Of a stretch of DNA of 64,000 nt, positions 2,122 through 39,011 are shown one piece after another. The notes below the pieces were generated by a model. It worked only from the letters and a program-made list of their open reading frames with translations, had not been told where the DNA came from and did not search any database. The DNA comes from Amphiscolops sp. MND2022 (taxonomy: Eukaryota). A program made the translations under genes and the position numbers. The stretch spans positions 40,922,001 to 40,986,000 of the forward strand of contig OZ076409.1 in NCBI GenBank assembly GCA_964187785.1, given 5' to 3'. The first letter of the stretch is position 1; every line of letters starts with the position of its first letter.

Positions 2122-2849
2122 TGTAACGTCCACCTAACAGCGTACATCATAGAAATGGGATAATACCTAGGGTGCTCAAACAGGAGACCGTTACTTTACT
2201 ACAGTCCTAGACATTAGTTCTTAATCCCGAAATGGTCTCCCAAGAGGGACTTTTTCAAACGTCAAAGGATGCTCCTCAGTTAGAGCTCCGTGGCGACGTG
2301 GCGGTGCACTCAAAGTCTGGACAAGACCCACAAGCCCGTAAGAACGTATCCTAAGGTTCCTTACGTTTCTGCGACTCTACATACCTCCGAGGTCCGAAAA
2401 CAAGGGTTTAGCTAAAGTCCATTTTAAGGAGATTAATAACGTCTAAAACAAAAAATAGGAGTCAAACATCACCAAAAGTCTGCAAAAAACCACAAATACG
2501 GTACAACAGACTGAGGAAACATCACGCGTCAGCGTCAGCTAGTCTTTGACCTGCTAGGTGGCACATGCAAAATATGCAAACTTCTGAGTTTCTTCATCCC
2601 TTGTGCCATTCTTCGGGTTTCGTTGGTAGCTGGGACGTCTTCCGAGGGAGATGGCACCCGGCGATTTCGGGGATACTTCTATTGCGGGGTGTTCTCTCTC
2701 GGGCTGGGTGGTGGTGTCTTTCCTGCGTTTTTTCGCTTCTTCTACGGTTTCCGTACCTGCCGGGTCGGCCATCTTGAATGTGCTCAGCTGATACCGCACA
2801 TTTTGAATTTTTGATCAAAATTTTGTAACATCGACTGCCTGACGTTACA
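2122..2849 (-). mobile_element. Solo LTR (728 bp) of the TGTAACG...CGTTACA clade, subfamily B
   Basis: Terminal inverted TGTAACG/CGTTACA, TAA on both flanks, clear similarity to the LTRs at 34532 and 39244. Confidence 0.9.
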
Positions 2850-6600: not shown

Positions 6601-6867
6601 AACCGCACAAAATTTACTTTTGTGTTGTTACGCCTTAGTTTGTATTTTTTGCCTTCGCAGTGCTCTTGCTTTTGTCGTGCTTGTATTTTTTGTATTGGTT
6701 CTTGTTTTAGCTCTTATTCTTTTACGAGTGCTGTGCACTTTGTTGACTGTTTGTGTCTTGTTTCGTAGCTGTCTTGGGTTACTAGTTCCATGGTTGTATT
6801 GAGGTTCAGCGTTTTTTCGCGGATAAGGTTTCCGGTCTTTTTTTACGGTAATGCTGGTGATAACTTT

Positions 6868-7595
6868 TGTAACGGCAAGCTCTGGTACAGCAATATCAAC
6901 CGACATGTTTGGAAATTTTGTCAAAAATTCGTACAAATTTGACGTGGCACTCAAACATGCTCAAGACGAAGTACCTGCCAGAAAAAGCACCCCAGAAAAG
7001 CAGAAATCGCCGCTCGCGACGAACAGGCACCGGAGACGACAAAAAGACGTCCCCAACGCATACAGAACACGGTATTGTGTCTATCTCTAGGAGATATCCA
7101 TTACTACAGTAAAGGAAACCAGTGTTCCAGATGTTCGCCTGAGTATCCCTGCGGTATCCTGTGTGGCAACTAGCGCTAGCGCTGGGAAGCTGAGGTCAAT
7201 TTTCATCAAATGACTGTGAACTCTTGATCTCTTGTTGTATTTTTCGATGTGGTAAATTAATATGCTCGAGAGCTGTTGTTTAACATCTGTTTATCCAATT
7301 TGGGGATTTTATCAGATTCTCCAATATTACGGTTCAACCTTCATCGATTTTCAGCCCGATTTTTAAAGGCTAGTTGAGCAGTGGTCTTGAGTCTTGCAAG
7401 ATGCCTGTTACTTTTAGCAGTTACAGACTAGGACCAGGCCAGAGAGTATCCTACAAGACGGTTCCCCCACCTTGGGACTGGCTCCTTCGGAGGGAAAATG
7501 AGCTAGAGCCGCGGAGATCTAGGTCCCAGATTATATTCGCTGTTCTAGTTCCTCCACTCTACGTTGCGGTTCAAGCGCCAGCGCTTATCGTTACA
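6868..7595 (+). repeat. 5' LTR (728 bp), subfamily A
   Basis: TGTAACG...CGTTACA, near-identical to 24911-25638. Confidence 0.97.
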
Positions 7596-7610
7596 TAGAA
7601 ACTCATTTTT

Positions 7611-7628
7611 TGGCGACCACAAAGGGAT
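7611..7628 (+). promoter_or_regulatory. Primer binding site, tRNA-Arg-like
   Basis: TGGCGACCACAAAGGGAT resembles the complement of a metazoan tRNA-Arg 3' end (...TCCCTTCGTGGTCG-CCA, from recall). The same motif is at 39211-39227 (-) and ~62788. Confidence 0.8.
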
Positions 7629-8806
7629 CGTCTTGGGAAGCTTTCCCTAGCGGTTTTTAAAAGATCTGGCCCCCTGGTGATCAGCGCCAAGCCCGTTTTC
7701 GACTCTGGACAGGAGAGAGAGAAGCAGAGTTTTACCTCTTTTTAGTCGTATTACGTCTTACTGGAACTGGGAGAGGCGTTGAACCAGAGAAAATGCCGAA
7801 GAAAACGTGTTTTCAGGTGCGAAAATGGTATTTTTGGGCATTTTAGAAGGAAATCGCTCTTTATGTGTGATGTGTTGTGTACCCATCAGCGGGTACTTTT
7901 TTGCAGGTGCAGAGGACCGTAGCACGTGGCTACGGGTGTCTAACAGGTTTTTTGAGCTATTTTCAGCCATTTTATGCCATGCAAGAGGGTAACGGATGGA
8001 TGGTTGACCATACTCCAGCGAGGCGAAGGAGGGGACAAATCTCGTGTTGCCTACTTCCTATTCCCATTTCTCGTGGAGACGTCCTAGAGGCATGGTTTTT
8101 GGTGGACAGCAAGTGCAACGACAGACGGTGCTAATGGTCCCACCCGCGTGTTTCTGTCTGGTCTAGATGTGGAGAAATAACGTGGTGAAGATGCACCCCC
8201 TGTGACCAGATGCGTCGCTCAGATGGAGTATGGTTGGCGAAAATTTTGAGAATACACCTCTTTCGATGGAGAATCGTTGGTGCAGGTCAGTGACGTTCTA
8301 CTATAAATGTAACGACACCGTACGAAGTGCTTTTCTGCGAAAAGATAGCACTTGGAGAAAAAACCATCATTTTTGCGTTTTTTTGGTGTTTTTCTTGGTT
8401 TCGAGCACTAGTGCTCAAAGAAGCCAGGAAAGTTTAGTGGAAAGTTTTGAAAAAACAGCTGCAAGGCTCGAGAAAGCCGGCACGAGGCACGAAAGGTGAA
8501 GTTGAAGCCTTTGATTGTGATAAAAGTGCCAATTTGATGCCGAAAAATGTGGAAAAAGTGGAAATTTGGCCAAAAAGGCACCCAAAATGTGAACGTACAC
8601 GAGTATGGAAGTGCAAAACGACAGTGTACGGCACTGCCCCAAGTGTAGTTGACCCTCAGGATACTAATTGCCACTTTTGTAGCGGACTCAGGCAGCCTGG
8701 GGCTGATACAGTGCGAAAAACTTGTGATTTTTGGCATTTTCGAGCAGGGAAAGTGCATTAACCGAAAACACCCAGAGCGAAGCTTATTCGAAGAGAGCGG
8801 GCTCGA

Positions 8807-9073
8807 GCGCTCTCATTTTCAATTTTAGCAGCAAAAACGACGCATCGTGGTGAAAACCGCGTGCAGAAATTCCTTTTCAGTGTTGAGAAAAGTCGAAAAA
8901 CCTTGAATTTTGGCCAGTTTCAGGAGTACCAGAGTGCATCATTAAAACCTCTGGGGCACTCAGTGTTTTCGAGACCTGGGAGCCCGCGCGCTCTCATTTT
9001 CTGTTTTTATAATAAAAATAACGCGTGGTGGTGAAAACCGCGTGTAAAAACTCCCATTCAGTGCTGAGAAAAG
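8807..9073 (+). repeat. Diverged direct repeat (~181-bp period) in the 5' leader
   Basis: gcgctctcatttt...gtggtgaaaaccgcgtg...ttcagtg(t/c)tgagaaaag occurs at ~8807 and ~8988. Confidence 0.7.
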
Positions 9074-10289
9074 GGGAAAAACGCACTGAATTTGATCAAT
9101 TTTCCACAAAACCGCACTGTCTCTGAGCTAGGGTCGGGTCATCGATTCCTGAACCCTAGCCAAAAAGTGGTTGGATTTTCGTAACCACCACAAAAATTAA
9201 CGTTAGTGCCGAAAATTTGGTGAGCGTATCGGTCACCAAAGTCGAGAAAAGCTCTCTGACGTTTCGACCTCAGAGAAGCGTAAAAGGACCAAAAAAATCC
9301 AAAACTGCAGGACTGTCAGTGCCTTACACCTAGTGGGCACCACCAATTGAGGGTTCATCCCAGTGCTACGGATAGTGGGGCAACACGTTGGTCCCATTTT
9401 GCCTGCCGTATCACTTTCTGAGGTGATCCTCTTGGTCAATTTGTGAAAAAAGTCGTCAAAAACAGTGTTTTTTCGTGTACAACGTACATAGTGGGTCGAA
9501 ACCTCAAATAAGCGCTCGCGCTTCAATTCGACTATATCAAGGGCATTGTAGGTGCCCACCGGCATAGACTACCAAGTTTGGTGCCGATTTGTGTGATACT
9601 TGTCGAGAAAATAGGAAAAACGCGGCGCCCAAAAAAGTGCGCAAAAAGGCAGTTTTTTCTTAATTTTTCCAAGTAACCCGGGCACCTTGACCGACGGGTG
9701 GGGCTATATTGCAGCCCACCATCGTAATTTGTGCTAGTTCTTACGTTGCTGCAGAGAATTTGAGCTTGCTAGCTCTTTCCAGTGGACCGCAATCTTGAAA
9801 AGACGTGAAAAACAGTGTATTTCGATACATCGTGGTACCACACGTCTGTACCTAGGTGAAACTGTGTTGAAGGAGCGCGTGTTCATTTTCGTAAACCTAC
9901 TTGTACCTAAGATCTGCTGGTCAATTTTGGGCTTGATACAGCGCTTCTAGCGCACACACGAGCCTCTTGAGTGTTGTCGTGCGAATTTTGAAAAATCCTA
10001 AAATTCTTTGAAATTCTTCCTGTGAGTGACTGAAGACTTTCTGCCCCAAACCAGGTTGATTTTCTGGCCCAGTGCGCGTGTGAGAAAACGCTGTGCAAAT
10101 TTGAACAGCCTACGAGCTCTAGAACGTGTTTCGAAAAGTCTAGGACATTGAATAACATCAAATTTCTTAAGTGCTCACCGGGACGACCAAGGGATCAGCC
10201 TCGGATTGAAGACCCTGGTACGTTCGGCGACCCAATTTGAGTCTTCCGAGTAATCGTGAGCGGTAACTCGATCGCTATTAATAAGCGCG

Positions 10290-12941
10290 TTGGCCACCGA
10301 ACTGATGGCGGTGCCCCATACAGGTTCACAATCGTGGGTCACGATAGATGGTTCGCGTTTTTCAGACGACATGTCTGACGAAGTCACTATCGAACAACAG
10401 CGAAAAGAGGAATTGGCCGATATGGTTCCTCCCTCAGAGAACTCCAGTGTTTCCGAAAATTCGCGTCGGACCGAGCAGTGGGTCGACGAAACCTGCCGCG
10501 ATAGAGCCAATGAAGTGGAAGAGGGCTGGCCCAATTCGAATGCAACCGATGAATTGGTGGCTGAGGAAGGGTGCTCGCGCGCACCCCCGGCTGGAGAGAC
10601 ACAACTCGGCTCGCAGACCGACATGGAGCAGGACCTCACTTATGTGGGAGGTATGAGTTACGCGAGACAGCGAGGACTCGGGACCACTCGAGGACCTACC
10701 CGGGTCTGTGCCTACGGAAAGCACAAGAGGGTGCGACCACCCATACTGCAGGTAGGCGAACCACGTCAGGAGGCATCCCGTGTTAGGAGTATGGCAGGTT
10801 CATTGGCCTCATCGCAACGGTCTTCGGTATACAAGGCAGCGCTATTGGATGCCCAAGCCGAAACCCAACGGGCTCTAGCAGGTCTGGCCAGCACTCGTGC
10901 TCAGTGCAATGAGCAACATCTTGCCATCGTGGAAAATATTAAAGTGATGCAGACGACGATGCGTGAGGGCCTGCAAGTCAGCGATCAATTGCGTACCGCG
11001 CAGAACGTGCAAAATGCTCGAGTGGACACATTGGGTCACCGGATGGGAGAGATGAATGACATGTTGATGGCTCGCGAATTGCGCGTGGAAACGCAGATCA
11101 ACGACTTAAGCAATCAGATGCGCACAGTGCTCAATGCCATTGATGTCATGAGGCGTGAGAGGTCTCTCCCGCGGCAGCCCAGTGCAAGAGGAGGCGTGCG
11201 GAATGGAGGTCCAGTCCGTATCTCGGAGCCGACGTGCCCGAGCCAGGTAGTGAAATCGGAACTGCCAAGCGCGTTGAAGCCTAGCACTTCCAGGCCGGCA
11301 GTGCCTGCGCCCCGGAAAGATGAAGGAGTAGCCGGAAGTTTGGTGATAGCCACGCCTGAGGCAGAGCGCAAGCCTGCACGAGTGCAGATGAGGGGACATC
11401 ACGACTCAGCAGAGTCATCGATGCCTTCTGCAGCCCAGAGCACTACTTGAGATCAAGGCGTGGATCCGATGTCAACCATCTATCTTGATTCTACGGTTGA
11501 AGTCGACTTATCCAACACCAAGGCAACCCTAGGTTCTCAAACCGAGGGAGCAACGTTTGCAACTGCCCCTATTTCGATGTCAGGACCAGACTCCTTATAC
11601 TTGACCGCAGACTTGTCAGCCGATCATGGACTGCCCTCGGGCACTCCCTGCGCTAGCAGCACTCGCAAGAAGGACGAAATCGCTGACCTGTCGATACTAG
11701 CCACTCTTGGTAGTCATGACAGGACGCGCGAGGGGGAAGCTAAGGTCGAAGAAGGAGAAGCCATATCCCCTGAGCAGCTGAGATTCACGGCCGCCATATC
11801 AAAGGCGATGTCAAAAGAGTTAGCGCCTTTACTCGCCGGCAGAGACTTGGCTCAGGCGAGACCTAATGTATATCGCGGTTCCAAAGACGGATCCATTGAT
11901 GGGTGGATCCTTATTATGCAGAGATACCTGAAGAGAACGCAAACCAAGGTCTCAGCCGAGGACCAGGCCTGGAGCATCATTGGTCACCTTGAAGGTGAAG
12001 CTCGCAACTACATCATTAACAAAGCAGAATCCGAACGTGACACCCCCGAGAAGGTGTTTGAATTGTCATCCAGCCGCTTTGGCGCTGGAGGAAATCGTAT
12101 GCAAGTACGACAAGCTTTCCAGAGCCGCATTCAACATGAGAAAGAAGACTGGATGCAGTATTTAGACGCTCTAGAGGGTCTTAGAAGTCAAGGATTCCCG
12201 CAAGAGACAATCACTACCAAGCGCTATGAAATCCTCCAGCGCTTCATGGAAGGCGTACGAGACCCAGCGCTGAGGCGGGAACTTGCTATAGTATATGCCT
12301 CGGAAGTCTTCCTGACCGAACCACCTACGGTGGAATCCCTTCGCTTCACCACCCGCCAATTGCAGCGCAATCGCCCCAAACCCAACCAATTCACTCAACC
12401 CTATGACCCCAGACTAGCAATGAGGTCTAGACCTCAACCCTTCGCGCCGCTACCCCCCAACAAAATGGTGTTACCACAAGGAGTAATGCCTCCCCCACCT
12501 GCGAGCAATGCCCCACCAAATCAGGCAGCAGCGCAGTCTGCGGCACGCCTACCCGTTGGCGCATGCTTCAACTGCGGTCAAGCTGGGCATTTTGCCCGGG
12601 ACTGTCCCACCCGCGATCAGGCTCGCAAACCAGTGGCAGCTCCCGAGCCAGAAGGCGTGAAAGTCACTGCTGAAGATGTAACTGATGGCGTGTTGGAGAA
12701 TTATCCAGGCATTCATCAGTGTGCGCACTGTGGAGTCTATGACCATGTGGATGTCCCCTGTGGTGAGCATTCTCAAGCTCCAAGGCCTAATGATGAATTG
12801 GCCTACAATCGATGGGCTGAGGTGGAATCCGCTGGTGTGGCCGCCCACACTGTACCCCTGGAGGATGATCGCGTGTTAATGCTGCACCCAGCGGAGCCTC
12901 CAGCGTTTCATGCGGAACAAAGCAGATTCAAACGTGCTTAG
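10290..12941 (+). CDS. gag: Gag: acidic and coiled-coil N-terminus, capsid, CCHC knuckle; one in-frame TGA at 11448-11450
   Basis: ORFs 10290-11450 and 11460-12941 share a frame. Capsid-like IDGWILIMQRYL...LEGEARNY, knuckle CFNCGQAGHFARDC, second knuckle-like CAHCGVYDHVDVPC. Confidence 0.9.
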
Positions 12942-15900
12942 AGCCCACCACGTTCGATCCGCAAGGGAGAACGTTGATCTCGATTCATCTGATGCTGGCA
13001 GCCGAGCAGGTGCGTAGACCAACGCTAACCTTGGCGAAACTCTGGGTTGAGCTATCTGTCCTCTATAACCGGATGGAGTTGCCCCGCCCAAAGCAGTGGT
13101 ACGTCCCTGGAGAGTCGGAGACCCTGACTACATACTCGCCAGTACCGGTTTGTGCAACGATGGACGGCGTGGACGTGAAGTTCGAGGCCTGTGTGGTGGT
13201 AGATGTATTCCCACCCGGCTTATGCTTGGGACCTCAAGAGCTGAAATGCTATAATATCAACCACCAAGAACCGACCGGGGAAGCGCGGATAGATGAGCGT
13301 GCGTCGCTTGTTGTCTCTTTTGTGGTGCCCCATGCGGCACCTATCCCACTGCGAGGCTTGGTGGATACTGGTTCCGGGGTGTCCATACTAACCTTCTCCG
13401 CCTTTAACCGGGTAGCTGCACGGACCGGTGCGGTCCTGAAACCCTATCAAATTGATTTGTACGCTGCCAACGGGAAGACAATAACGACTTTCGGGTTGGC
13501 TGAGCAGGTACGCTTCCAGTTGGGAGGGTATGAACTCGAAACCAATTTCGTCGTGGTAGATGACACAATGGGCGTGGAGGACTTTCTGTTGGGTCGAAAC
13601 TTCCTCCGTTCCTACCAAGTCCTGGTAGATCTAACCTCCATGAAGATAGTGGTGCGAGCACCAGTGAAGCCCGTCTGGCATCATGCACACACCCAGGTAG
13701 GTGATGCTTCGCTAACTACTCCCATTGCTCTGGACAGTGACCTGGTCCTACAGCCTTTCGAGCGTACAGTGGCAAAGGCTAAACTTGTCACCAACGCGCT
13801 TGAACCATCAATTTTCCAGACCGTGGCGCTTAACGCCTCGTTGTCTGATCCCTCATTGCAAAATACCATCTTTTTAGAGGACAGCGTGGCCACTGTCAGT
13901 GAGACAGGAACATTGTATGTGAGTCTGGTAAACCTCACCAGAAACCAGCAGCGTGTACGATGTGGTGCCCACCTGGGCACGGTAGTGCCTGTGTCTTTAG
14001 TATACCAGGCTGTGCCCCAAAAGCTGGATGCTACTGCAGAAACTGACCACAAAACTGAAGCCGACAACAGTCGAGCAAATTTTGTTTATAAAGTGTACAG
14101 TGAAATGAATCTATCCACTGCTTCTGAGTTAACTTCTTCATCTGAATTTGAGTTTTTGTCTTCGACGGATCCAAGTGAAGCGGGGCTTTCGGAGCGCGAG
14201 ATTCGCAAGCGCACCGATCCGGACCTATTGGCCCCGATCCCTGGGCCCGATTCTCAATTGCAAGAAGTTAAAAAACTCTGGGGCGCTAGTCCTTGGACAA
14301 CATTTAACGAGTTTGATGACCTATTCATGAAGCGTAAGGCGGATATTGGCCGCTGTACCATTGGTAAACACACTATAGAGGTAGAGCCTGGGGCTGTACC
14401 GCACCGTGAAGGTGCTCGCAGAATGTCCCCCGAAAAGGCTGAACGAGCCAACCAGGAGGTTCGGAGCCTACGGGCCTTAGGGATGATACAACCTTCACTG
14501 TCCCCTTGGGCAAGTGGTATCGTAATGGTAAAAAAGAAAAGCGGGGAGTTGCGTTTTTGCTGTGACTTCCGACCGCTGAATGAAGTAACCATTAAGGATG
14601 CCTACCCCCTGCCCCGCATTGACGAAAGCCTGGCGCGACTGGGCAATGCAAAGATCTACACTAGCATAGATCTTGCCTGGGCTTTCTGGCAGATTCCGTT
14701 GCGAAAAGCGGACCGCCACAAGACAGCTTTTGCCTGTGAGTTGGGACTCTTCGAATGGTGAAGAATGCCATTCGGCTTGTGCAATGCATTAGCCACCTTC
14801 CAGCGAGCAATAGCGCGAGCGCTACAAAAAATAGTCAATCGCAAAGGCAGCATGGACATGGCATACATCGACGACATAGTTATAGCAACGGAAACTGTGG
14901 AAGATCACATGGCGCGTCTGCGCGAGGTCTTTGAATGCCTCCGCGAGGCTGGCTTCAAGATGCGCGTAGCCAAATGCGACTTCATGAAACCAGAAATCAA
15001 ATATCTGGGACGCGTAGTCTCCGCAGAAGACGTCAAACCGGACCCGAAGGCTGTTGCCAAAATGCGCGACTGGGACATCCCTCGCAACAAGACAGAGATG
15101 CAAAGTTTTTTGGGATTCGCTAATTATTATCGTGAATTTATCCCATGGCATGCCAAGCTGGTTGCGCCCCTCCACGCCGTTACTGGACTGAATGCCACGT
15201 TTGCATGGGGCCCTGACCAGCAAAAGGCCTTCAACGAAATCAAGAAAGCATTGATCGAGGCGACTGCGCTCGCGCAGCCTGATTCTGAAGAAGTGTTTGT
15301 GCTGGACACCGATGCCAGCGCCGTTGCCATTTCCGGCATCCTACACCAGTGGCAAGGAGCTCCAGGAGAGCGACGCCTACGACCGATCATACGATCATAT
15401 ACGGCAGCAAGAAATTGACCACCACCAAAGCCAAATATGGGGCACCCAAGCTGGAAATGTTTGCAGCCTACTACTTCATCCTGAATTACCACAGCTACCT
15501 TTGCCCCCAAAAGTTCACCCTGAGAGTCGACAATCAAGCCCTATCCTGGTTGAAAACCTACTCCACGGACCAAGCATTGATTGGACGTTGGATCATGACG
15601 CTGGACAGGTATCACTTTCGTGTGGAACACAGACCGCGAACTCAACACCGCAATGCTGATGGCTTGAGCAAACGAACCAACGATTATCGATGCCGAGAAC
15701 AGCAGCTTGCGCAGCTGCCAGCTACCGGAGAGCGTTGGAATTTCCTCTCGGCCGAGGAATTCGACAACCTCCCCGTAGCCCCCTGGTTCGACCTGCAAGG
15801 TCGAATAATTCCAAATCATCCTGACCTACCACTGCATCTGCAGAACTTGGAGCCTAAGGCTCCTGACCAAGCACTCCGTGTGCTTCGCCGTGTGCAACAA

Positions 15901-17500
15901 GCGAACAAGCGAGAACGACAGGCAAAGGCGCTAGCCGCACCTCTACCGCCCAAGCCTCCACCCGTGCTGCAAAAGCACGAGGATTTCTACCCGGACTATC
16001 CTGAAGACTGGATAGACGTCACCACTGAGGCGAGCGAGGATTACCTGCTGCCAACACATGCAGTAAATGTCCCCTCTCGCACCATCTATTCTGTGGCAGG
16101 AACGAGTAACGCCATGCTACAGAACTCTCCTGGTGGCGTGCGCGAGTCGATCATGGCCCTCAAGGACATTGACACCGAGCTCCATGAACACACTCATACC
16201 GTACATGGGATCAAGGATTTGGTCCTAGCCCAAAACCGCGATGTCCATGTGCTAGCACTGAAGAAGCTCGTGCAGTGTGAATTCCTAGATAACGATGTGT
16301 TTCCCGAGAACGTGCGTGAGTTCGCACGTAACTATTTTCGCCAGAAAAAGGACCTCTTGTTCATAAACAAGAATGACGTCCTTTGCGTGCAATACTCCCC
16401 CACCCAACGCCCATTGCACGAACGTCCGTGCATGATCATAATGCCTCAGCTGTACCAGCACGAAATTCTGTTCCGTGCGCACGACGCAATGGGACACCAA
16501 GGTATCTCAAAAGTGGTAGCTCGAATTCAAGAGCGCCACACTTGGCCCGGCATACGGCGCAGTGTCGGTCGATACGTCGGCCAGTGCCTCACCTGCCAAC
16601 AAGTACGTGACAAGCCTGGTGACGTACGATTTCAACTGAAAAACATTCAGAGTGGCTACTTCAACGAGTTGGTCCAGTATGACCACTTAAAAATCTGCCC
16701 CTCTGATAATAACAACACCGGCATTTTGGTCATCATCGACCATTTCTCTAAATTTGCAGAGGCAGTCCCTTGTAGTCACCACGACTATGACGCAGTGACC
16801 ACCTCACGATTGCTGCTGCAGAAATGGTTTGCCCGCCACGGCACCCCCACTCGCATGCAATCAGACAATGCTCCAAACCTTACTGCTGAAGTCTCTAATG
16901 AATTCCTAAAGGCAGCTCACGTCACTAAAGTGACCTCCACTGCCGGACATCCACGAACTCAAGGTTTGGTGGAACGGCAAAACCGAACCTTCTTAACCCT
17001 GTTGCGAGTCTTTTGCTCGCGCCGCATGCGCGACTGGGACCAATGCTTAGATGAAGTGATCGATCGGTGCCTATAATTCTACCAGGCACGCCACTACAGG
17101 CTTCTCGCCCTACATGTTAACAAGGGGTGTTGAGAAAGCAATCCCCCTCACCTTTTTGTACCCTGAATTTGCGGCCAAGTCCTTTGATACGCATGAAGCA
17201 TACGTGGATCATGTGTTGGCTCGCCAACAAGAAATTCACGACTTGGTCCGGCGCAATACGCACCAGGCTCAATTACGCCAAAAATTGAAATATGATCGTG
17301 CTATCCGCACACGAGCTTACCAGCCGGGAGAGCTCGTCTGGGTTTTTTGCCGCTACGTGCCGCAAAAAGGCTCCCCCAAGCTGATGCGCGCCTGGCGTGG
17401 CCCGCACAAAGTAGTACAAGTCTTTCAAGAAGGACGTGTCTACGTGTTGGACACAGGCCAAAAGGTTCATTTTGAGCGCCTGAAACCTCATCACAGTGGG
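12911..17500 (+). CDS. pol: Pol (protease, dUTPase-like spacer, RT, RNase H, integrase), disrupted
   Basis: LVDTGSG and LLGRNFL (protease); SPWASGIV, RFCCDFRPLN, MPFGL, YIDD (RT); LDTDAS, VDNQAL, NADGLS (RNase H); HDAMGH/CLTC, IIDHFSK, SDN, VERQN (integrase); WRGPHKV...VHFERLK (GPY/F). Lesions: TGA at 14759-14761, 8-bp duplication CGATCATA near 15385-15400, 4-bp GATC duplication near 17060. Confidence 0.95.
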
Positions 17501-19615
17501 CCCCTTGAGCTCGCCACCGCGCAAGCGGACAGCGGCGAAATAGTGGTACTCATGGACCCTGACCCTGAACGTTCTATCGATGTGGTTGACGACAATAAGT
17601 CCCAGCCTTCATATAAAACTGAACAACTACTTTCAGAAGTAAGCACCTTCGCGCAAGCACCATTGGATGGATACCCGGTTGCGCACAAAGTTGCGTGCTG
17701 GAGGTTCCCGCATGCACTACCAGCAGTTCGACTACTCGACCTCGGGCACTGACGACGAGTTATCCGAAATCATGTTACCGGTACCTCCTGATCCCGTTGA
17801 TGCTGATCGTAGGGAACCCGAAGTCCCCCAACCCCCTTCAGACCAATCAATATCACCTACCCATCGTCTACCTCAACTATTCTCAGACCATCACCACAAA
17901 TATCTTCTCCCGAAAAACAGCCCTCATTATTGGGAACATCGGCCCCACTACTGACAAATCCATCGCTGACGAGTTTCCTCAATAACTATCCCATTTGGCC
18001 GGCCGCTCCTTCCCTCCCTCTGAAGTCCGCCACCGAGGATGACGACGCTCAGTCCAATGTGCCTACCCTTCCCACGACATTGCCCGGAGCGGGGACCGCT
18101 CCTTCTCTCAAAAGGGGTAGGAGGAGACCACCCAAAACGCGAAAACTGCTGGTCAGAGCGAAGGCAAGAACGAGAAAGAAGGAAACAACAACAACAATGC
18201 CGTCGGAAACAGCAATACCGACCGAGGCTTCTGAGGTCCCCCGATACCAGCTGAGAAGCAGGCGGCAACCACGCTACAAATGCGGGACCTGTGGGCTGCG
18301 AGACTGTGTTTGCTTGCTAGCCGTCAATGAGAACCGGAGTGTTCCCACTGGAGCCCGGGGAGTTCCTCCGGAGCGGGGAGCAAATCTAGTACATCGCCTT
18401 ACGGTGAGAGCTGAGAAGACTTATTCCTCCCTGGAACGACACGGAGACCATCCCGTGGATACTATTCTGGAGAAGTTATCATCACCTGGAGTAGCGAAAG
18501 CTCCGTGTCCTCGATTCAAGGAGTGGACTAGCGACGGAAAAGGGTTAGAGTTTACCCTCGCAACGGTGATGCCCCCAGTACCCAGCAATATTGCGTTTGG
18601 ACCCTTCAACTTCGAGCGGGAACCTGTGCAAATGGTCCGATGCATCACCGCTGATCTTCTCTGTGACAAATACGGAATTCACGTGGATCCGGGCGGAGTA
18701 TACAGCCCAGCGCTGCACTGGTGGTTGCTGGTTACTGCTCCACGAGTGGAGGCAATAGTGGAACCACTGCACCTGCTGTCCTGCTTGGAAGGTCTGAGGA
18801 CCCTCACTACCGCGGACTTGATACTTTGCTTCCACGTTATAGACTGGTATCGTGGCAAAGTGAAATTCGCGTGGTGGTTGGAACTAATCATCACTTGTTT
18901 CACCAATTATCCTCGCATTAGATTGCTGGATGAGTGGACTCATACTTTTGAGATTCCACTTCCCTCAAAAGCCGCTTTGAGCACCCTAGACGCATGGGTC
19001 AGGGCGAGCAGTGATAATCGAGCGATGCCACGATCGGTGTGGCAAGACCTGGCTGCAATCCAGGGGCGTACGCCCCGCGTGTGCTTACCTGCCGACAATG
19101 GGCCGGGGAGAGAGATTATCTACCCGGGAATTCTGCATCCAGCCCCAACAGAGCACCTCTCACACGATGTGACTGATTTTCTTCAAGTAGAAGGTGATAT
19201 GGTGTTAGCGTGTCCCGCTGACCTAGAGACCAACTCAGCCGCCCTACGGTACGTGCTACGAGAATGCGGCAAGGAGAATGTGTTCTCCCTACGTCCCAAG
19301 GTGGGGGAGATTCTCACCATTCCCCCTGATATCAACCCAAACCCCAATCAGAGTATTCATTTACTGATAATCAGAGCAAACCAGCGTGCGCCGCTGCTTA
19401 CCGACGACTACCTGCGTTGTATGACGCACTAGATACAGCGCTTGATAGAGAAAGGATCCACGAGGGTCCACCTACCTATACTGGATCCAGAGCGACCCAC
19501 CCTCTCATTGGTAAACCTGTACCATACCCTAACGAATTTGCTGGAGGGCACTGGCATTCACGTGGTGCTGCATAACCGCGTGTATGTGTCCATTCTGAGC
19601 ATAGGGCCGGAGTAG
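17500..19615 (+). CDS. Post-integrase extension: Pro-rich/basic linker, Cys cluster, two putative TARG1/Poa1p-like macrodomains
   Basis: Overlapping ORFs 17114-17752, 17667-17954 and 17930-19432. After the TAG at 19430-19432 the frame stays open for 60 more codons to 19615. Macrodomain call is from a by-eye alignment to TARG1/OARD1. Confidence 0.7.
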
Positions 19616-19901
19616 CCCGCCAAAACTTTTTTCTGTTGCCCCCTATTTAATTTATCCACCCCGATAATTGTCATGTCTGGGAAGAAGTCTTGAACAATCC
19701 CATGGAATGATTACCTTGTAACGTAGCGTTAAATAACTCCTATCTTTATGTTCTAGTTAGTTAGTTGAACTACAATTTAAACTTGTTGCGGTTCCCTTAT
19801 GGAGCCATCTTTGTACCATTGTAATTGGATGATGAGCCTTAAGCTCTCCCCACAATGCACCTAGTAAGCCTAACGGTAATCCTTTTTAGACCTATGATAT
19901 A

Positions 19902-22900
19902 ATGGCTTATTATCCCAACAACACGGTGCCTATTCCCACGACGGGACCTCACACCAATAGGTCTCAAGAATTGCCTGCGCGAGCGCAGAGGACTAATCAA
20001 GTCCAATATGTAGAAGAACGACTGAGGAACGGCCTCTCACCGTTAGCGGTAGCGGGCGTGGCCGCCCTGCTCACTCAACTAGACACGATGCAGACGCTGC
20101 CGGGTGTATCTGTGTCTCTGGTGACGGAAGTAGCCGGTTACCGTCGCACGCTAACCTGCCAAAACAATGCGTGGGATGGCCACGATTTGACGCATCAGTT
20201 CTTGGATGAACGCTCTACCACAATGCTCGGGCCCAGCCAGGGCACGAGATTCGAGCAAGAAGCCTCCCTGTGTATGGTGCCTGCCAGCGTTGCAACGATG
20301 CCACCTCCTCAGATGGTCGCATTGCCCCCACCAGCACCAAAACCAGTACCAATGACGCCAACTTATTCCGGTTCACCTGCCTTTGGGACCTCATATCGAG
20401 CGCCACACATGGTACTGCAAACCACTACTAGTGCACCAGTCTCTGATCGGGAGCCCTCGGGGTTCCGGTTGCCACCCATACCTAACCCAGAGCTGACTGG
20501 AAGGAGTACCAGCGAACAGGCCGTAATTGTGGCCCTGCAAGCAGTGGCCAACTATCCGAACTCCTCCGATTTTGTTTGTGCCGTAGAGCAGAGAATCCCT
20601 GGACTAGCCACTTATCTGCAAGCTGCTGTTCAGCCCTCGGGCTGTGACCCTCCTGCTCCCTTAGTCGAGACGGCATCTATGGATGTGGAAATTGCTGCCG
20701 GACCAAGCAACAGCGCAAGCGCTGCTACTGGCACACGAGAAGAAGCCGGGAGAAAGCGACTAACTGAAGAAACTGCCTCAGTCACCCCAGCTGGCTCAGT
20801 AACCGAGAGCCCGACTAGTCGTCCCCCTCCCGACAAACGCGCTGATGTACCTCGACCCCAGCTGAAAAGTGTAGTCATCCCTAGGCCTCCATACCGAGTG
20901 GGTCATCTAGGCCGAGGCGCGCTTCAGATGTCTCTAGCGGACGCAATCGAGCAGTATGGAGATCCGGATGCAGGCTCGGAAGTGAGCTCTGTGCCCTCGG
21001 GCACGAATCCAATAGATATGTCCCTGGAGATACCTGAGACGGTGGAGGAGGCCCGTCCCCCAGCCTTCCTCCCTCCATCTGATGACGTATCCGGTTCAGT
21101 AGTCACCAATGATAGCAAACGCATTTGGATGGCGGCTGAGCATCTCTACCCCAGTCAATGCGCTATAAAGAAAAGGACCCCTCCCACTGAGACGGAGCAA
21201 AAGGAAATTAATCGAACTACGATATCGGCGCAGGTCACGCGTTCGCTGCGCCCCCGGGACAGAGATATGTCGGAGCAGGCCTGGGAACAGCGTGCTCGAG
21301 AGCAGCTGCCTACGACAACTAACGATTACATGGCACCCCTGCAACATAACATCACCGAGCAATTCCCCGCACGGTATGTGTTGCGAGAAGGTGAGACATG
21401 GGAAGCGAACGCCCGCTACGCCCGCAACTTGAGATCTCTGAAACCACTATTGAAAGCAGCTCTGCAGCGCGCGCGCTACTGCATGGCGGTTGATTCTACC
21501 TGCCGGAGTGACCTGCCTATTGACAACTTGATGCCTGACGTGCTGGTACTGACTATGCCCCTGTCTCGCTTCGCTGAGATCGCTGAGATGGTTGGAGCCA
21601 TATACGATCCAAACTTAAGAGGATCACAGAAGGAACCACCCCCACAGCGCGTGATCTTTGCCAATCTTCTGGATCACATGGCTTGCGAAGGGTTGCTGCG
21701 TGACCTGGACGCTATAATGTCCGATGTCCGACGACCTGGAGACATTGCAGCCCTGGTAAATGAGGTGGTCGGTGCAATGGAACGTGCCGCAGGGATCCTT
21801 CGGGGTCGTCTGGGAGCGCTCGCGCTCTTTGTATCCCCACCAGGATTTATGTACTGGCCACGTAGTCTGCAGCAGTTTGTCTACATTCTGCTGGAGGTAT
21901 GCAAGGCGCGCAGAGTCGAATTCGCCATCTGTGCACCAAACTTGCGCGTGGACCGAGAGGACCTGCGCCCAGATACCTTATCGTATCCAGCCTTCTTTGC
22001 CGCCGTATCTAGAGCACTCGTGGCTATAGAACGCTCGGGAAACGCCCAGCTAACCATTGACGACGCTATCCTCTATGATCATGGAATGCGGATGGGCAGA
22101 ATGGCCTTTGACCTTGACGGCAACCGCATCGCCCGAGAGTCAAATGTGACCGAACGAGAGGCTGTTCGTCGGTACAATTGGCTAGTGCGAAAGGACAAAG
22201 AAATCCCAGTGCGTGCAGAGTTAGCCGAACTGACAAAACAAATCGGTGCATGGCCTGCAGCGCGCACCGTTGAGAGAACAATCCCTCAGATCCACTTCGC
22301 CTCAGGAATCGAGCCCGTGAAGCTGCATGTAGGACTGCAGTGCATCGTGGCGATTGAAGCAACAAATCTGAAGGCAGAGGTTGATGCCGCAGCTACCACT
22401 TACGCCTATTGGTACCAAACTAGGTTTGCCACCAGGACTCTAGCAGAAGTAGCTCGAGAGCTCAATTGTCCATTGGAAGCCTTCTGTACCAGTCTTGGTC
22501 TGGGATGGAACCTTGAAGTGCTAACTTCCGAGTTTTCGCTGACCCCTACGCAAACGGACAAGCTACTAGAAACAATTGGAGAGGCAACTGTCGGAGAAAT
22601 GCTAGCGCTCGCGCTAGCGATGGGCCCAACGAAGTTCGTAGCCGGACCACTAGCCCTATTAGTCGACATCGTGATTGCCTGCGACCTCACCGTGTTCTAC
22701 AGCTACTTGGTCCTGGCACAAGGACAACTACGCAGCCTGACCCGCTGGGGACATTTAATGACCTCCAAAGACCAACAAGATGATTCCGCCTAACTGGAGC
22801 GCATGCGTGCGTCGATCCAACACTGGCTATATTCCACCCTGGTGTTCGCCTCCGGTCTATTCGTGGGCGTGGACCAATCCCAACCACTACACAACTCAGA

Positions 22901-24209
22901 CCAGCAGATCCCACGGGAAACGGCAGGATTCCCCTTGCCGCAGCAGATTGCTGATCTAACCCTGGCTGAGGTAGAGGATTTCGTGGCATCCATGGCTCCT
23001 GTCTTGGCCCCCATCTTTGGCGCAGTGGGCGTGTGCCGATACCCCACAAAACTGTTAGCAACAGCAGTCCAAGTGCACATGGTCTCCTTTAGCACCTATC
23101 TGCGAGGCCGTCCCTCACTGGCATATCCAAGGGTAATACATGCCGTGCTGAGTGGTGAAGTGCCGCATGGGTACACGACCGTGAAATCCGAAAGAGAGTT
23201 GGAGGAGAACCTGATGGGTTTGTTGCGCGCGCGCACCAGGAAAGCATGTTCTCTGCCTCGAGAACATGGGCCTGTGAATTGGTACTCCGCACCTCTCAGT
23301 TTGGAAGGAGTCCCCTTCAGATTCCCCTGGAGTCAAGAGTTCATAAGAAAGGCGATTCGCGCCAGCACTAGTGCTGGTCCACCTGTGGACCCTTTGTACT
23401 GCTTTAAATGCATCGCCTTCCCGAACCGCTATTGGAAGGAGCCGTTAGGTTGGCCAAGGGCGAAACCCGTTGGACGCGCCCCGGAGATTTTCAACCGTCA
23501 AATCCAGCACTTGGAATCAGCCCAGATCCCAGGATGGATTGAAGGCGCTGCTCAGATCAGGCAAAGGAATCTCCAATCCCGCGTTACCCCATTCCCCAGG
23601 AAGTCGGCATGGAAGCCTACGGGAAAGATGACTATGTCTGGAGATATGTCCATCGTCCAGCATGATGAGATCAATTCCGTGTTGGGCTCGACAGAACGAG
23701 CAAGATGGGAAGAGTACTGTCTGGAGTTGGAGATTGCTAGCTTCCCTAAGTGGAAGAGAGCTTGCGAGCTCTGGAGCCAAACTGGGTGGATCTCACGCCG
23801 AGTCGCACTAGCAGTAGAAGGTAGAGCAGAAATAGCGAGACAACAGGCGTTCGCGCCTACCATGCTCGCACCAACGATGGCGATGTCTTTGGATCGGCCC
23901 ATCTCTCAACCGATCACCATTAACCTTCCAACCCACCACTTGGAGCCAGAACCATTTGGCCCGTCTTCGTCGCGAACTAGCCCTCAGTCCTTGCAGCAGC
24001 AGTCCGGAGAGCACGCCGCCGAGTTGACTCCCAATGCAGCACTAGTGCAGCCCATTGCCGAGTTGTCGCTCCCCGAAGATCTGTCGGACTCTGAAACGGT
24101 TGCCACAGAAGTCTCTCCCCGACGTCGAGCGTCAGTGTCGACTGATAACCCAGAACAGAACCCAGATGATGCCACTAAAGAGCAGACCCGACGCAGTTCG
24201 GCTCAATAA
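19902..24209 (+). CDS. Large accessory ORF3 (~1435 codons, one in-frame TAA at 22791-22793) with a putative SGNH/GDSL-like domain
   Basis: ORFs 19902-22793 and 22803-24209 are in one frame with only three sense codons between them, inside the LTRs at the env position. SGNH-like blocks at ~21470-22030. Confidence 0.8.
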
Positions 24210-24892
24210 ACCCAGCCGCTGATGGGAGCGTTCGCGCTCCCTATACCCTCGCAAACTGCCAACAAACAGTGCCTTAAAACTTCTCATCCAGGACGGTGCT
24301 ACAGTACAAAGTGCAATTTTTGTTCATAGTTATGGTTATATAATTAGTGTACCATTAGTGTTGCACTGGGTGTACGGCCAATAGAGTACGCCTGCCCCAG
24401 TGGCTTGAATTACCAAGCAGAAAGAAGAAAAACTATTATTCAGAAAAACTGCTATTTTTGTTGCGCACCGTTCGCGGTGTTTTTGAGTTGTCACAATCAA
24501 AAGAAGTCTTATCCCTCTTGATTGCATTTTCTTTCTAGTCTAGTATTCTTCATCAATTTGGTTGTTCACCGTAAGAGCCCGCAAGCTCTAAAAAAAGTTT
24601 TTAATCGCCTAAAGTGAATTGAAGACTACAAGTCTCAAATGGTAAGAAAAAGAAATTTTAGCCGACTTTGGTCGCAAAAACGTTTTTAGGTGCTAAAACC
24701 TCGTTCGTGTTTTGTACAAACAGCTAGGCAGTAAGCTCTTTTTTTCGTTAAAAAAACCGCAAAAACTGACCAAAATTGTTGCCGAAAAACAAGGACTCGT
24801 CCTTGTTCCCCGATGTGTGGATGATGGTTCCCAGCAGTCACTGTGATGCAGTTTCCAGACGAGCCAGACGCCGCTTGCCAGGGACGACAAGC

Positions 24893-24910
24893 CAGGAACC
24901 TGGGGAGTGA
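24893..24910 (+). promoter_or_regulatory. PPT-like tract
   Basis: CAGGAACCTGGGGAGTGA directly before the 3' LTR. The relative at 35260-35275 (-) has CCCGGGGAGGA. Confidence 0.7.
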
Positions 24911-25638
24911 TGTAACGGCAAGCTCTGGTACAGCAATATCAACCGACATGTTTGGAAATTTTGTCAAAAATTCGTTCAAATTTGACGTGGCACTCAAACA
25001 TGCGCAAGACGAAGTACCTGCCAGAAAAAGCACCCCAGAAAAGCAGAAATCGCCGCTCGCGACGAACAGGCACCGGAGACGACAAAAAGACGTCCCCAAC
25101 GCATACAGAACACGGTATTGTGTCTATCTCTAGGAGATATCCATTACTACAGTAAAGGAAACCAGTGTTCCAGATGTTCGCCTGAGTATCCCTGCGGTAT
25201 CCTGTGTGGCAACTAGCGCTAGCGCTGGGAAGCTGAGGTCAATTTTCATCAAATGACTCTGAACTCTTGATCTCTTGTTGTATTTTTCGATGTGGTAAAT
25301 TAATATGCTCGAGAGCTGTTGTTTAACATCTGTTTGTCCAATTTGGCGATTTTATCAGATTTTCCAATATTACGGTTCAACCTTCATCGATTTTCAGCCC
25401 GATTTTTAAAGGCTAGTTGAGCAGTGGTCTTGAGTCTTGCAAGATGCCTGTTACTTTTAGCAGTTACAGACTAGGACCAGGCCAGAGAGTATCCTACAAG
25501 ACGGTTCGCCCACCTTGGGACTGGCTCCTTCGGAGGGAAAATGAGCTAGAGCCGCGGAGATCTAGGTCCCAGATTATATTCGCTGTTCTAGTTCCTCCAC
25601 TCTACGTTGCGGTTCAAGCGCCAGCGCTTATCGTTACA
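24911..25638 (+). repeat. 3' LTR (728 bp), subfamily A
   Basis: Near-identical to 6868-7595. Confidence 0.97.
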
Positions 25639-25735
25639 TTTGATGTGAGTAGGTCTTGTTATATGATGTCTTTGAATTCGCAGTTTTGATCGAGGGATGC
25701 CAATTTTCGCCAGTGTTCTAGCGGCGTTTCGTTTT

Positions 25736-26147
25736 TTTTTACCCAGAAGAATTATCGACGACTGTGCAACGTTTTTCATTTTGGCATGTAGTAGCCTTTG
25801 AATTGTTGTTATTTGCCGCTCACATAAATGGGGGAGGAAAATCATGATCTGTGATGCGTTTTTTTTTACAAATTCTGCCAAAACTCCACTTTATCTCCAC
25901 TCCATGGAGTGAAGTGCACGTCCCTTAGTTACTTGACTATTTTTAGTAATTTAAGTTCACTAGCGATAATTACAACTGAGTTACATCAATTTTGATGGCT
26001 CAGTCAGGTTGTATGTCCTGGGTTCGAACCCGTGCTGGTTCTTGAATTTTTTGTTTCCCAGTCAGTAGGTTCGACCCTCTCCTTCCTCATACTTTTTTGC
26101 AAAAAGCGTGTCGCGGAAAATATCCCGGTGCTTAGCAGGCGTCTTGT
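25736..26147 (-). repeat. Dispersed non-autonomous repeat (HINE-like or tRNA-derived), copy 1
   Basis: Terminal (a)caagacgcc..ctaagcacc, internal aaaatcatgatctgtgatgc and GGTTCGA B-box-like motifs. Related copies at ~29280-29650 and ~31340-31752. Interrupts the old gag. Confidence 0.65.
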
Positions 26148-29279: not shown

Positions 29280-29650
29280 ACAAGACGCCTCTAAGCACCG
29301 GGATATTTTCCGTGACACACTTATTGCAAAAATGCAAAAAAAAGTATGGCGAAGGAGAGGTTCGAACTCACGACCTACTGTCTGGGAAACAAAAAAAAAC
29401 AAGCACCAGCCCGGGGTCGAACCCAGGACCACCTACAACCTGACTGAGCCACCACAATTGAAGTAACTCAGTTATAACTATCGCTTGTAAACTAATAAAA
29501 TAGTCAAGTAACTAAAGAATAGTCAAGTAACTAAGTGACCTTCACTTCACTCCGTGGAATTTTGGCAGAATTTGTAAAAAAAAATTTGATCTGCATCACA
29601 GATCATGATTTTCCTCACCTATTTATGTGGGCGGAAAATAACAACTGATT
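29280..29650 (+). repeat. Dispersed non-autonomous repeat, copy 2
   Basis: Reverse complement of 25736-26147 (caagacgcctctaagcaccgggatattttcc...). Confidence 0.7.
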
Positions 29651-29699: not shown

Positions 29700-32340
29700 A
29701 CTTTCGATACCTTCCGAACTTTCCGAATTTCAAATGGGAAGAAAAATATCAAAGTTGGTTTTATTCAAAACCTCTCACAGCAACAAAATAACAGTGCTCT
29801 TTCCGAACTCTGTTCATACTGATCGCTTCAAATTACGCTGTTGAGGTTAGGTAGATTAAGCCGGGAACTAAGTGAAGTGGATGGCGATCGTGGCGATTTG
29901 GCAGATTTTGATGAAAAGCGTTGCATAGATTATGATTTTTCTCACCCACTATATGTGATTGGAAAATAATACATGGGAAACGTATTCGTGAAGCAGTCTC
30001 TGAATTTGAACAGGAACCATACAGCAGGACGTGACAAAAATGTGACACATGTCAATGGTCCGGTATTTCTTCCAGTTCAGATTGTGTGGTGGGTCTTTCC
30101 ATGTTCCAAAGTGGATCCTTCGACCACTGGACCAACCTCCGTGTTTGTGGTTGGTATCCTGCGGGTCGGTACTCTTATTCCGATTAATGTTGTCTTCTCG
30201 TATTGTTTTTAATCTGGAAGTTCTCGGTTGCTTGTTGAAGTGGAATTTGTGTTCGTGAGAGAACTTCCACACTTCCGCCTTTCTCTTGATAACGGGTAGA
30301 CTCAGGTTTTACTCTATCCCTCCGAGCCGTTGGTCCGTACGGAAGCTAACGCAACCATGATGGGCTTGAGGTGTTGTACACTTTGAAGTTATTGATTCTT
30401 CGTCGTATGCGTCATCGGCTTGCGCTGGTTCGGACGGATTTCTACTGAGATAATCCGTGAGTGCTTGGTGTTTATAGGCTATAAGACTGACGTTAATTTA
30501 TACGTGTGGTAAGCGGTCCAGACATCGTATTAGCCGTGAACTCTTGTTTTATTGGATCTGTTTCGTTTAACTAGAGGCTCTAGTGAGTGATGATTTGTAA
30601 ACAACTTCTCACCGGTTTTTCGCGTATGTGTAAACAAGAATGCTCTAATACGCATAATACAGCTAACAGCCATTAGTTCATGTTCAATATTTGCGTCTTT
30701 GTTCTCCATATTTGAAAGCAAATGGTTTGCAAAGCCGATCGGTATATAATATCCAACAAGTTTTCTTGCCAGAGCATTGGCAATATTTTTTCGTGCTTTC
30801 GTCCGTTGTTATAACGTTCGGAATATTCGATTTTTAGTCGACAAAATTTTTAGTTTATTTCAGATATTCTAAAGCGGGGTGTGTTTGTCGGTTTTATTCC
30901 ATTCGTTTTTTTCAACAAATGTCTCAACCTGTCCGTCTGGGCTGAAAGTTTCAATATAAGTTTGGATAAGTATTTAATTGCTTCCGTGATAGTTCTCGGT
31001 TCTATTTCATTCGTTCCTTTTTGATTTTTTTTCAGCTTTTTTAACGTGAGATTTGACTCTGGTCTTAGTTTTCTGGGTTTGGACTATTTCTTTCTAAAGT
31101 AAGTTTGGGATATCGAAGAGCCCGTACAATCCTATCACAAATTGGTAGTACCCACTGCCACTACCTCGTCTAACTGCGAAGACACACATGTGAACAGCTT
31201 TTCCAAATGAAAGTACAATTTTTATGCCGTTTACTGTGTGGTTTTTTTTTCACCAAACAATATCATCGATTTCAGCATCGGTGTGTTTGGGGCTTCATTG
31301 ATGTGGCTTCATCGCGGGACTTTTTTACCGCTATACAGAGTTGTTCGCTTATCTTTTATCTACTTCCGACCAAAGTGCGAATTTGTATTGTTGTTATTTT
31401 CCGATCGCAATTTTTATAAATAGGGGAGAAAAATCATGATCTGTGACGCGTTTTTTTCCAAATTTTGTCAAATTTCCACAATCTCCACGTTTTGATTACT
31501 TGACTATTTTGTATAGCTACTAGTAATTAAAATAGTCAAGTAACTAAAACAGCTTACATCGGGAATAATATCTAAAGTCAAAAATGGGAATAAGATCAGG
31601 TCGGGAATAAGATCTAAAAGGAATTAGATCTGAAATCAATAAGTTTTAGATCTTTTTCTGTAGATTCTTTTTCCCCTTCTCAAATAGCTATGGCTCAGTT
31701 GGTGAAGGCGAACAGGGCGGAAATAATCCTGGTGCTTAGCGGCCGTCTTGTTTTTAAGTAAAACCTCTAGTTGCTTTTACTTTTCACCTTTTCTATATTA
31801 TATTTTGATTTTTCTTCTATTTTCAAGTGGCTCTTATTCATGTGCTGATAATTTACTGTCAATCGTGTTTTCGAAGTTGAGTTGTTGAGAACTGATATCG
31901 GTATTATATTGACCGGTGAGCTGCTGCCAATATTTAAATTCATTGGTCGGTTGCTAACCAATGCGATATTGGTGTAAAACGGTGGTCCTTTTCTACAATC
32001 CGTTCGTTCGATTCTTTGTTGAAATGAAACTTTGTTGAATCTACGTGGCAGATTCTTTCCTTTCCGCTGTTTCGAAGGAGAAGTTCAATTTCTGATACAT
32101 GTATTCGTGTATTGCCTCTGTTATAGCTTCTACTGACACAAGTTTTTCTGAGTTTCTTGTTTAGCTCGTAGACGCCTGTTGATTTTTCAAACAAGGAAAA
32201 GAATTTGGAGGCGAGCAGGTTTACTGCCATTATTGTTTCGAGTTCTTTTGACGTCTAGGATGCATTTCCATACAACTGCGTAGGACTCATCTGTTTTTCC
32301 TCTTCTCATGTCTGTGTTGTGCATATCTTTCCGTTGTGAA
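29700..32340 (-). pseudogene. Heavily decayed Gypsy pol fragment
   Basis: RNase H-like IEHELMAV and FTNHHSLEPLVKRNRSNKT, plus degenerate RT/protease-like sequence. Boundaries approximate. Confidence 0.65.
31340..31752 (-). repeat. Dispersed non-autonomous repeat, copy 3, with internal gggaataagatc tandem units
   Basis: aaatcatgatctgtgacgcg and the terminal ggtgcttagcggccgtcttg are shared with the other copies. Confidence 0.65.
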
Positions 32341-38610: not shown

Positions 38611-38969
38611 GTAACCAAATCGATATTTGAGCTATTAGGGTGTTATGGCTAGCTCGCTATATATTTTCAGAAAACAATCGGAATACCCAGTGGGTATTTT
38701 TCTCAGTTCTTACTAATGGGAGTACGCCTGGGAATAGGCTTTTAAAGCCATAAAAACAAAAAGGGAGATTGTAACCCAGTCGATTCGTAGTGATCCACCA
38801 GTGGGTCAAGAGGGTGTTGCCGTGATGGACGTCACTCCGTCGTCACAGCTAGTGGAGGCGCTCACACCACGTCCCTGCAGTCCCAATACATTACAACTAA
38901 GCTGAAATGAGACTAGAAAACCCTTTAAAACAGAATCCGGTTAAGCCGGATGGTTAATCTCGGTACAGA

Positions 38970-39011
38970 GAAACGGTGTCGAAACGGTGTCGAAACGGTG
39001 TCGAAACGGTA
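38970..39011. repeat. 11-bp tandem repeat (gaaacggtgtc) x~3.7
   Basis: Read directly from the sequence. Confidence 0.9.

Follow-up and report, generated by a model that had tools for sequence, protein, structure and literature searches.

Why should the primer binding site (PBS) of an LTR retrotransposon lie 15-16 nt behind the CA that ends its LTR, and what becomes of the additional DNA that reverse transcription from such a site would make? A 64-kb stretch of DNA from Amphiscolops sp., hereafter the window, raises this question in the three LTR elements whose 5′ internal junction it contains (E1, E2 and E3). We examined their boundaries, primer sites, flanks, coding content and predicted RNA structure, and weigh below how such elements might replicate and integrate.

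Results

LTR elements and their ends

6868-25638, plus strand: E1, 18.8 kb
6868-7595, plus strand: E1 5′ LTR, 728 bp, TGTAAC..GTTACA
24902-24910, plus strand: E1 short purine-rich tract (putative PPT), directly upstream of the 3′ LTR
24911-25638, plus strand: E1 3′ LTR (5′/3′ LTR comparison), host DNA directly after it without a spacer
39972-34532, minus strand: E2, with a non-coding interior
39244-39972, minus strand: E2 5′ LTR, 729 bp (5′/3′ LTR comparison)
35267-35260, minus strand: E2 short purine tract
34532-35259, minus strand: E2 3′ LTR (5′/3′ LTR comparison)
from 62028, plus strand: E3, continuing beyond the window edge
62028-62772, plus strand: E3 5′ LTR, of the E1 family
2122-2849, minus strand: solo LTR with the 3-bp target site duplication (TSD) TTA, without spacer or PBS
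33964-40056, minus strand: older decayed LTR of the lineage of E2 and the solo LTR, split by the E2 insertion

LTR ends were set by comparing the 5′ and 3′ copies, which are identical at 721/728 positions in E1 and 720/729 in E2, and all intact LTRs run from TG to CA. Identity within the E2 pair ends exactly at the CA; that within the E1 pair extends one T past it, the extra T being the first base of the TSD. A misplaced LTR boundary is ruled out by this comparison. The E1 and E3 LTRs, identical at 632/753 columns, form one family, so that although the displaced PBS is present in all three elements, as a preliminary description of this DNA had claimed, the cases amount to two independent ones rather than three. 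Between E1 and E2 the LTRs agree at 400/777 columns, and their best local alignment under strict scoring is 9 nt; the solo LTR is related to E2 (511/762 columns identical).

E2 sits about 84 nt inside the older decayed LTR of its own lineage (33964-40056), whose first dinucleotide is altered. The 9-mer GGACGACAA is common to both families some 18-20 nt upstream of the 3′ LTR, at 24882-24890 (plus strand) and about 35286-35278 (minus strand), and is a possible second cis-element.

A tRNA-type primer site behind a short spacer

7596-7610, plus strand: E1 spacer, 15 nt, 20% GC, with a T run at its end
7611-7628, plus strand: E1 PBS, 18 nt, tRNA-Arg(UCG/UCU)-type, one difference from E2
39228-39243, minus strand: E2 spacer, 16 nt, 25% GC
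39210-39227, minus strand: E2 PBS, 18 nt
62773-62787, plus strand: E3 spacer, 15 nt
62788-62805, plus strand: E3 PBS, 18 nt, first base A

Each spacer sits between the LTR-terminal CA and the PBS, and its length (15, 16 and 15 nt, with ends pinned by LTR pairs) agrees with the displacement of 15-16 nt first noted; the spacer is absent after both 3′ LTRs (E1 and E2), again as had been described. Spacer length stays at 15-16 nt in both families, although their LTRs have no local match longer than 9 nt. The spacers have a GC content of 0.20-0.27, vs 0.49-0.52 in the LTR tail. Those of E1 and E3 match each other within 2 mismatches, and that of E3 has one further 2-mismatch match in the window, at 63534; no other match at up to 2 mismatches was found in the window, a search that rules out the spacer as a copy of sequence elsewhere in it.

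Judged from its sequence, the displaced site is a genuine tRNA-type PBS. In an alignment anchored on the PBS, between-family identity spans 18 nt and then ends, where a length of 10 nt had been proposed; E2 and E3 share 17/18 nt, E1 differs from E2 at one position, and the E3 copy begins with A and not with T as previously read. This 18-mer is the longest block common to the two families; elsewhere their best local match is 9 nt within the LTR, or 7 nt over the 300 nt past the PBS. Sharing an 18-mer at no more than one mismatch close to both LTR ends has a chance probability of about 8e-7. As a tRNA 3′ end, the block corresponds to positions 59-76, with CCA, G73, C61 and a pyrimidine at 60. 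The modified A58 of tRNA halts copying, and 59-76 is the length copied before it. Given that the 18-mer is the longest shared block and reads exactly as tRNA 59-76, priming by a tRNA at the displaced site is likely. Over its last 12 nt, the 18-mer agrees at 11/12 with tRNA-Arg UCG/UCU ends given for metazoans in a supplement (PMC13524379), a comparison with the tRNA-Arg ends of other animals; no tRNA gene was found in the 64-kb window. Priming by an oligo(A)-tailed tRNA, an idea suggested by the T run, was dropped, E2 having an A between the run and the PBS.

How unusual is such an offset? We drew 140 of 1,561 table rows from PMC13524379 and left out 33 without a PBS call; among the remaining 107 calls, 85 lie at -2 to +5, 7 at 10 nt or more and 4 at 15 nt or more, one of the latter with at most one mismatch. 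LTR ends in that sample are BLAST-defined, whereas those here are pinned by LTR pairs and TSDs. A Drosophila LTRdigest survey gives, in its accessible text, a median PBS offset of 2 nt and a range of 0-5 under offset limits that may cap that range (PMC2790888). An offset of 15-16 nt is therefore unusual and long offsets elsewhere are rare; they may nonetheless occur, since the ends in the sampled rows are BLAST-called and unverified (PMC13524379). Our literature search, which covered sources other than Repbase and most subscription journals, returned no case of a long LTR-PBS spacer or of its processing, and a scan of viral contigs and of metagenome contigs for the pattern of an LTR end, 0-30 nt and the PBS gave 0 matches in either set.

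Spacers of about 5-6 nt are known from ERV-L/MaLR elements, and one could regard the displacement as an ordinary trait of a catalogued Gypsy clade; the spacer would then be a neutral relic that a tolerant integrase accepts, and the fold described below a product of chance. The few automatic offsets of 11-29 nt in the published rows (the 7/107 above; PMC13524379) are in keeping with this, as are the energy-based fold controls, which are not significant. Yet large offsets in those rows vary within one tRNA group (+1, +11 and +17), as trimmed, BLAST-defined ends would (PMC13524379), while the length here is fixed across two families with dissimilar LTRs, and we consider a neutral relic very unlikely.

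Target site duplications

6865-6867 (left) and 25639-25641 (right): E1 TSD, TTT
39975-39973 and 34531-34529: E2 TSD, AGA

Exact 3-bp TSDs flank E1 (TTT), E2 (AGA) and the solo LTR (TTA). At these three insertions no TSD of 4-7 bp was found, and flank comparison rules out such a duplication in place of 3 bp. The flanks of the decayed LTR are not duplicated (CTA vs GTG), so 3-bp TSDs accompany 3/4 LTR-bounded insertions, a count that leaves out E3, the second flank of which lies beyond the window. A random pair of 3-mers matches with p=0.018, and three in four by chance would have a probability of about 2e-5. TSD length reflects the stagger of target cleavage. The 3-bp TSD is probably a second property of the same integrase, separate from the spacer: the two had been proposed to be linked, and no result ties the TSD to a donor overhang.

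Most LTR elements have TSDs of 4-6 bp (PMC12440569, in the text available). Within the literature searched (outside Repbase and most subscription journals), only Troyka came up for 3-bp TSDs in LTR elements, and no Gypsy group with TG..CA ends and 3-bp TSDs was found, which also speaks against a trait of a catalogued clade.

Coding content and relatives

10260-12941, plus strand: E1 gag region, interrupted, with a CX2CX4HX4C zinc knuckle
12869-19432, plus strand: E1 pol region, broken into several fragments, with protease, RT, RNase H and integrase (Gypsy order)
19890-24209, plus strand: E1 third ORF, interrupted, no Pfam match
35260-39209, minus strand: E2 internal region, about 4 kb, no ORF of at least 150 aa, non-autonomous

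The elements are of the Ty3/Gypsy type by their domains, zinc knuckle and GPY/F-like module. Pfam matches in E1 follow the order protease, RVT_1, RT_RNaseH directly past RT, Integrase_H2C2 and rve, with no tether domain, and zf-CCHC is matched in gag. The integrase comprises a zinc-binding domain, the core and a GPY/F-like module (a GPH variant, identified by eye from the translation), and the best PDB sequence match of E1 is Ty3 Gag-Pol (E 6e-22). For the third ORF, the ESM Atlas held no usable match and Foldseek returned none at E<=0.001 with a low-confidence model (mean pLDDT 45); its modelled part may adopt one SGNH/GDSL-like fold, with a middling Z of 7.6-7.8 from a weak, partial model. 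The structural matches listed included no nuclease fold, a negative that carries no weight with such a model. GDSL-type extras have been noted for LTR elements (PMC6431247, in the part available).

Close relatives are very numerous: 259 integrase matches were found among 934 candidates, and protein clusters related to the third ORF have up to 657 members. A metagenome integrase scan gave 80 loci, the 13 closest having 33-52% identity in the best segment; in none of these 13 did the available sequence contain an LTR pair or a PBS motif at the expected position, and a protein scan of viral contigs gave 0 matches. One relative with 34% integrase identity (L007) has a 2693-aa ORF and then a 1900-aa ORF (9403-15102), and in three relatives pol ends with a weak Macro domain. 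In a distant Gypsy element (L026, 248-420; 34% integrase identity) a PBS-like TGG lies 13 nt past the nearest CA, with an LTR boundary that cannot be fixed because the 3′ LTR is cut by the contig end.

Beyond the elements, the window contains a perfect 73-bp inverted repeat without a loop at 51794-51939, perhaps a fold-back element, perhaps an artefact of assembly, a repeat of about 350 bp in both orientations (25805-26147, 29280-29645 and 31382-31488), and a separate short-repeat family at 45716-46937 and 54169-54441. A tandem duplication of about 360 bp lies inside the non-coding interior of E2 (38006-38614). An Rfam scan of the window gave 0 matches.

A predicted fold joining spacer and LTR

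7494-7502, plus strand: E1 LTR segment -102 to -94, complementary to spacer +7 to +15 (predicted closing helix P1)
39337-39344, minus strand: E2 LTR segment -101 to -94, complementary to spacer +8 to +15 (predicted)

The 117-nt stretches ending with the spacer are predicted to adopt the same three-way fold in all three elements, with a closing helix (LTR -102/-101 to -94 with the 3′ half of the spacer), a long hairpin, and a second hairpin that would include the terminal GTTACA and the 5′ half of the spacer. In this model 13/15, 14/16 and 13/15 spacer bases are paired. The families differ at spacer positions +9 and +10 and at the bases opposite them in the helix, yet pairing is retained (two compensatory differences). 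Shuffled spacers equalled the real folding gain, computed as MFE, in 0, 4 and 1 of 200 cases with a 102-nt tail and in 7, 5 and 6 of 200 with a 130-nt tail, and random 15/16-mers from the window paired as many bases in 4, 5 and 1 of 300. All 6 differences between E1 and E3 within the 117 nt preserve the fold (null 99-1125/20000), and this stretch is 111/117 identical, vs 535/651 in the remaining LTR. The only run of at least three A in the last 200 nt of E1 is at -102, and E2 has one at -101.

Several results speak against the fold. The energy of the spacer-LTR duplex alone does not exceed that of shuffles (164, 182 and 534 of 2000), random 15/16-mers reach an equal energy gain in 44, 26 and 64 of 300, and the natural 3′ flanks gain as much or more (-5.6 vs -4.1 and -7.3 vs -7.2 kcal/mol). 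For E2 the fold z is only -1.61 (16/200), and with a 60-nt tail 55/200 shuffles match it; the closing helix disappears from E1 and E3 when the tail is lengthened to 130 nt (4/15 paired). The 5′ start of the fold was moreover picked after the pairing had been noticed and is thus post hoc. The predicted common fold, which is new here and which the preliminary description had missed, has moderate support; on balance, we give about an even chance that in both families the spacer pairs with the final ~102 nt of the LTR. Four differences between the E2 5′ and 3′ LTRs fall in their last 36 nt (39255-39279 vs 34543-34567); in the predicted structure one adds a hairpin pair, one breaks one and two are at unpaired positions.

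Such pairing would offer a possible reason to retain the spacer, and it also keeps alive an explanation by Tf1-like self-priming or dual priming. The transcript would here start near -102, and its 5′ end would anneal to the spacer, be cut and prime near the LTR, the tRNA site being structural, for packaging, or a second primer. Self-priming elements likewise pair a 5′ LTR segment with sequence past the LTR (PMC4600332, in the part available), and the title of a reference connects a U5-IR-like stem with the priming of Tf1. Within the last 200 nt, the best duplex with the spacer begins at -102 and -101 in the two families, a coincidence that, together with equal energies, recurred in 0/1500 shuffles under two shuffle schemes; the E2 duplex extends to spacer +1 with a bulge. 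A self-primed site, recopied in each cycle, should however show perfect complementarity as far as the LTR edge, whereas uninterrupted pairing covers only 8-9 bp (+7/+8 to +15), is imperfect over +1 to +6 and would leave 6-7 nt. There is no TATA or AATAAA-type motif near -102, and recopying from a tRNA best accounts for an 18-nt tRNA site that is still intact. We consider self-priming or dual priming distinctly unlikely.

Discussion

The account that we favour, and to which we give somewhat better than an even chance, combines tRNA-Arg priming at the displaced PBS, an integrase nick at the internal CA and a role for the spacer in an RNA initiation structure; it is built on genomic sequence from two independent families only. 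Host tRNA-Arg would prime at the 18-nt PBS, 15-16 nt behind the CA of the att site. Minus-strand DNA would begin at the PBS, so that the spacer would be included in the cDNA, and plus-strand strong-stop DNA would copy spacer and tRNA, which restores the two at the 5′ junction. On the right, the linear cDNA would end in the CA plus 15-16 bp, while the left end would begin at or within about 2 nt of the TG, which the short purine tract abuts. Integrase would nick after the internal CA, aided by an AT-rich and easily frayed extension, and host repair would remove the long 5′ flap after strand transfer. In the RNA, the spacer would complete a U5-IR-like hairpin and the closing helix ~102 nt upstream, beside the tRNA 3′ end; it would thus be U5-like in RNA, yet outside the att site in DNA.

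A PBS at the displaced site and standard LTR replication together imply a cDNA extension of 15-16 bp that is lost on integration. The extension of about 15 bp proposed at the outset stands in this respect, being predicted by standard replication and missing from 3′ LTRs; the route of its removal we can only infer. Against an internal nick, integrase cleavage falls as the CA moves away from the duplex end. HIV integrase is said to favour a subterminal CA, and altered MLV ends losing 1-4 nt reportedly integrate. Ginger DNA transposases cut continuous flanking DNA. They are described as close kin of Gypsy integrases in the available part of PMC3601003, and this kinship makes internal cutting plausible. 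Retroviral integrases, which count against it, are described as removing 2-3 nt (PMC12789967).

The extension might instead be lost after tRNA priming without a long integrase cut, through an early stop of the plus strand or trimming by a host or element nuclease, followed by the usual removal of a few bases. The subterminal preference of retroviral integrases counts towards trimming of this kind, as do the AT-rich composition of the spacer and the T run at its end. That run, however, lies at the far end of the spacer, and stopping there would leave about 10 nt; Pfam scans of the window's ten ORF fragments found no nuclease family beyond RNase H and integrase, and the modelled part of the third ORF appears SGNH-like in its weak, partial model. 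We judge early stopping or trimming unlikely.

More broadly, and only tentatively, since we doubt it somewhat more than we believe it, these elements may represent an undescribed Gypsy lineage, abundant in its host, whose integrase cuts 15-16 nt inside one cDNA end in a transposase-like manner and with a 3-bp target stagger, the spacer being a structured RNA and maybe a surviving intermediate stage between hairpin priming of the Tf1 type and priming by a tRNA. If internal cutting holds, a natural, successful LTR element would have priming and integration sites that are uncoupled, 15 nt apart, in contrast to the 2-3 nt processing described for retroviruses in the sources available, and the elements would provide a natural test of how deep inside a DNA end an integrase can cut, as well as a second 3-bp-TSD group besides Troyka. 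Annotation pipelines that demand a TSD of 4-6 bp and allow the PBS to lie no more than a few nt from the LTR would overlook such elements or annotate them wrongly.

Comparison with known systems

With Ty3/Gypsy elements (Metaviridae), including Ty3 itself, these elements share the order protease, RT, RNase H and integrase, the CX2CX4HX4C knuckle and the GPY/F-like module, as well as TG..CA LTRs, a tRNA PBS and a purine tract at the 3′ LTR. They differ in a PBS 15-16 nt from the LTR, in a 3-bp TSD vs the usual 4-6 bp (a trait outside the domain-based definition) and, for E1, in a length of 18.8 kb with a large third ORF. Giant Gypsy elements such as Burro and Ogre are also large with accessory ORFs, a likeness drawn from published descriptions.

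The 3-bp TSD is shared with Troyka (Kuafuorterviruses), animal LTR retrotransposons that, as far as the available text of PMC12440569 describes them, have CG..CG ends, LTRs of 100-400 bp, internal parts of up to 7.7 kb, a CX2CX8-10HX4C knuckle and no GPF/Y motif; that text yielded 0 matches for a PBS. All intact LTRs here have TG..CA in place of CG..CG, and Troyka membership is refuted by the ends, LTR length, knuckle and GPY/F-like module.

Like the U5-IR stem of retroviruses (RSV; PMC3601003, in the part available), the predicted stem includes the U5 terminus just upstream of the PBS, but it would run 15-16 nt past the att CA, where retroviral processing removes 2-3 nt (PMC12789967). Similarly, the self-priming chromoviruses Tf1 and Tj1, in the descriptions at hand, have an upstream LTR segment complementary to sequence just past the LTR; they use no tRNA primer, whereas the elements described here retain a full 18-nt tRNA site and pair imperfectly near the LTR edge.
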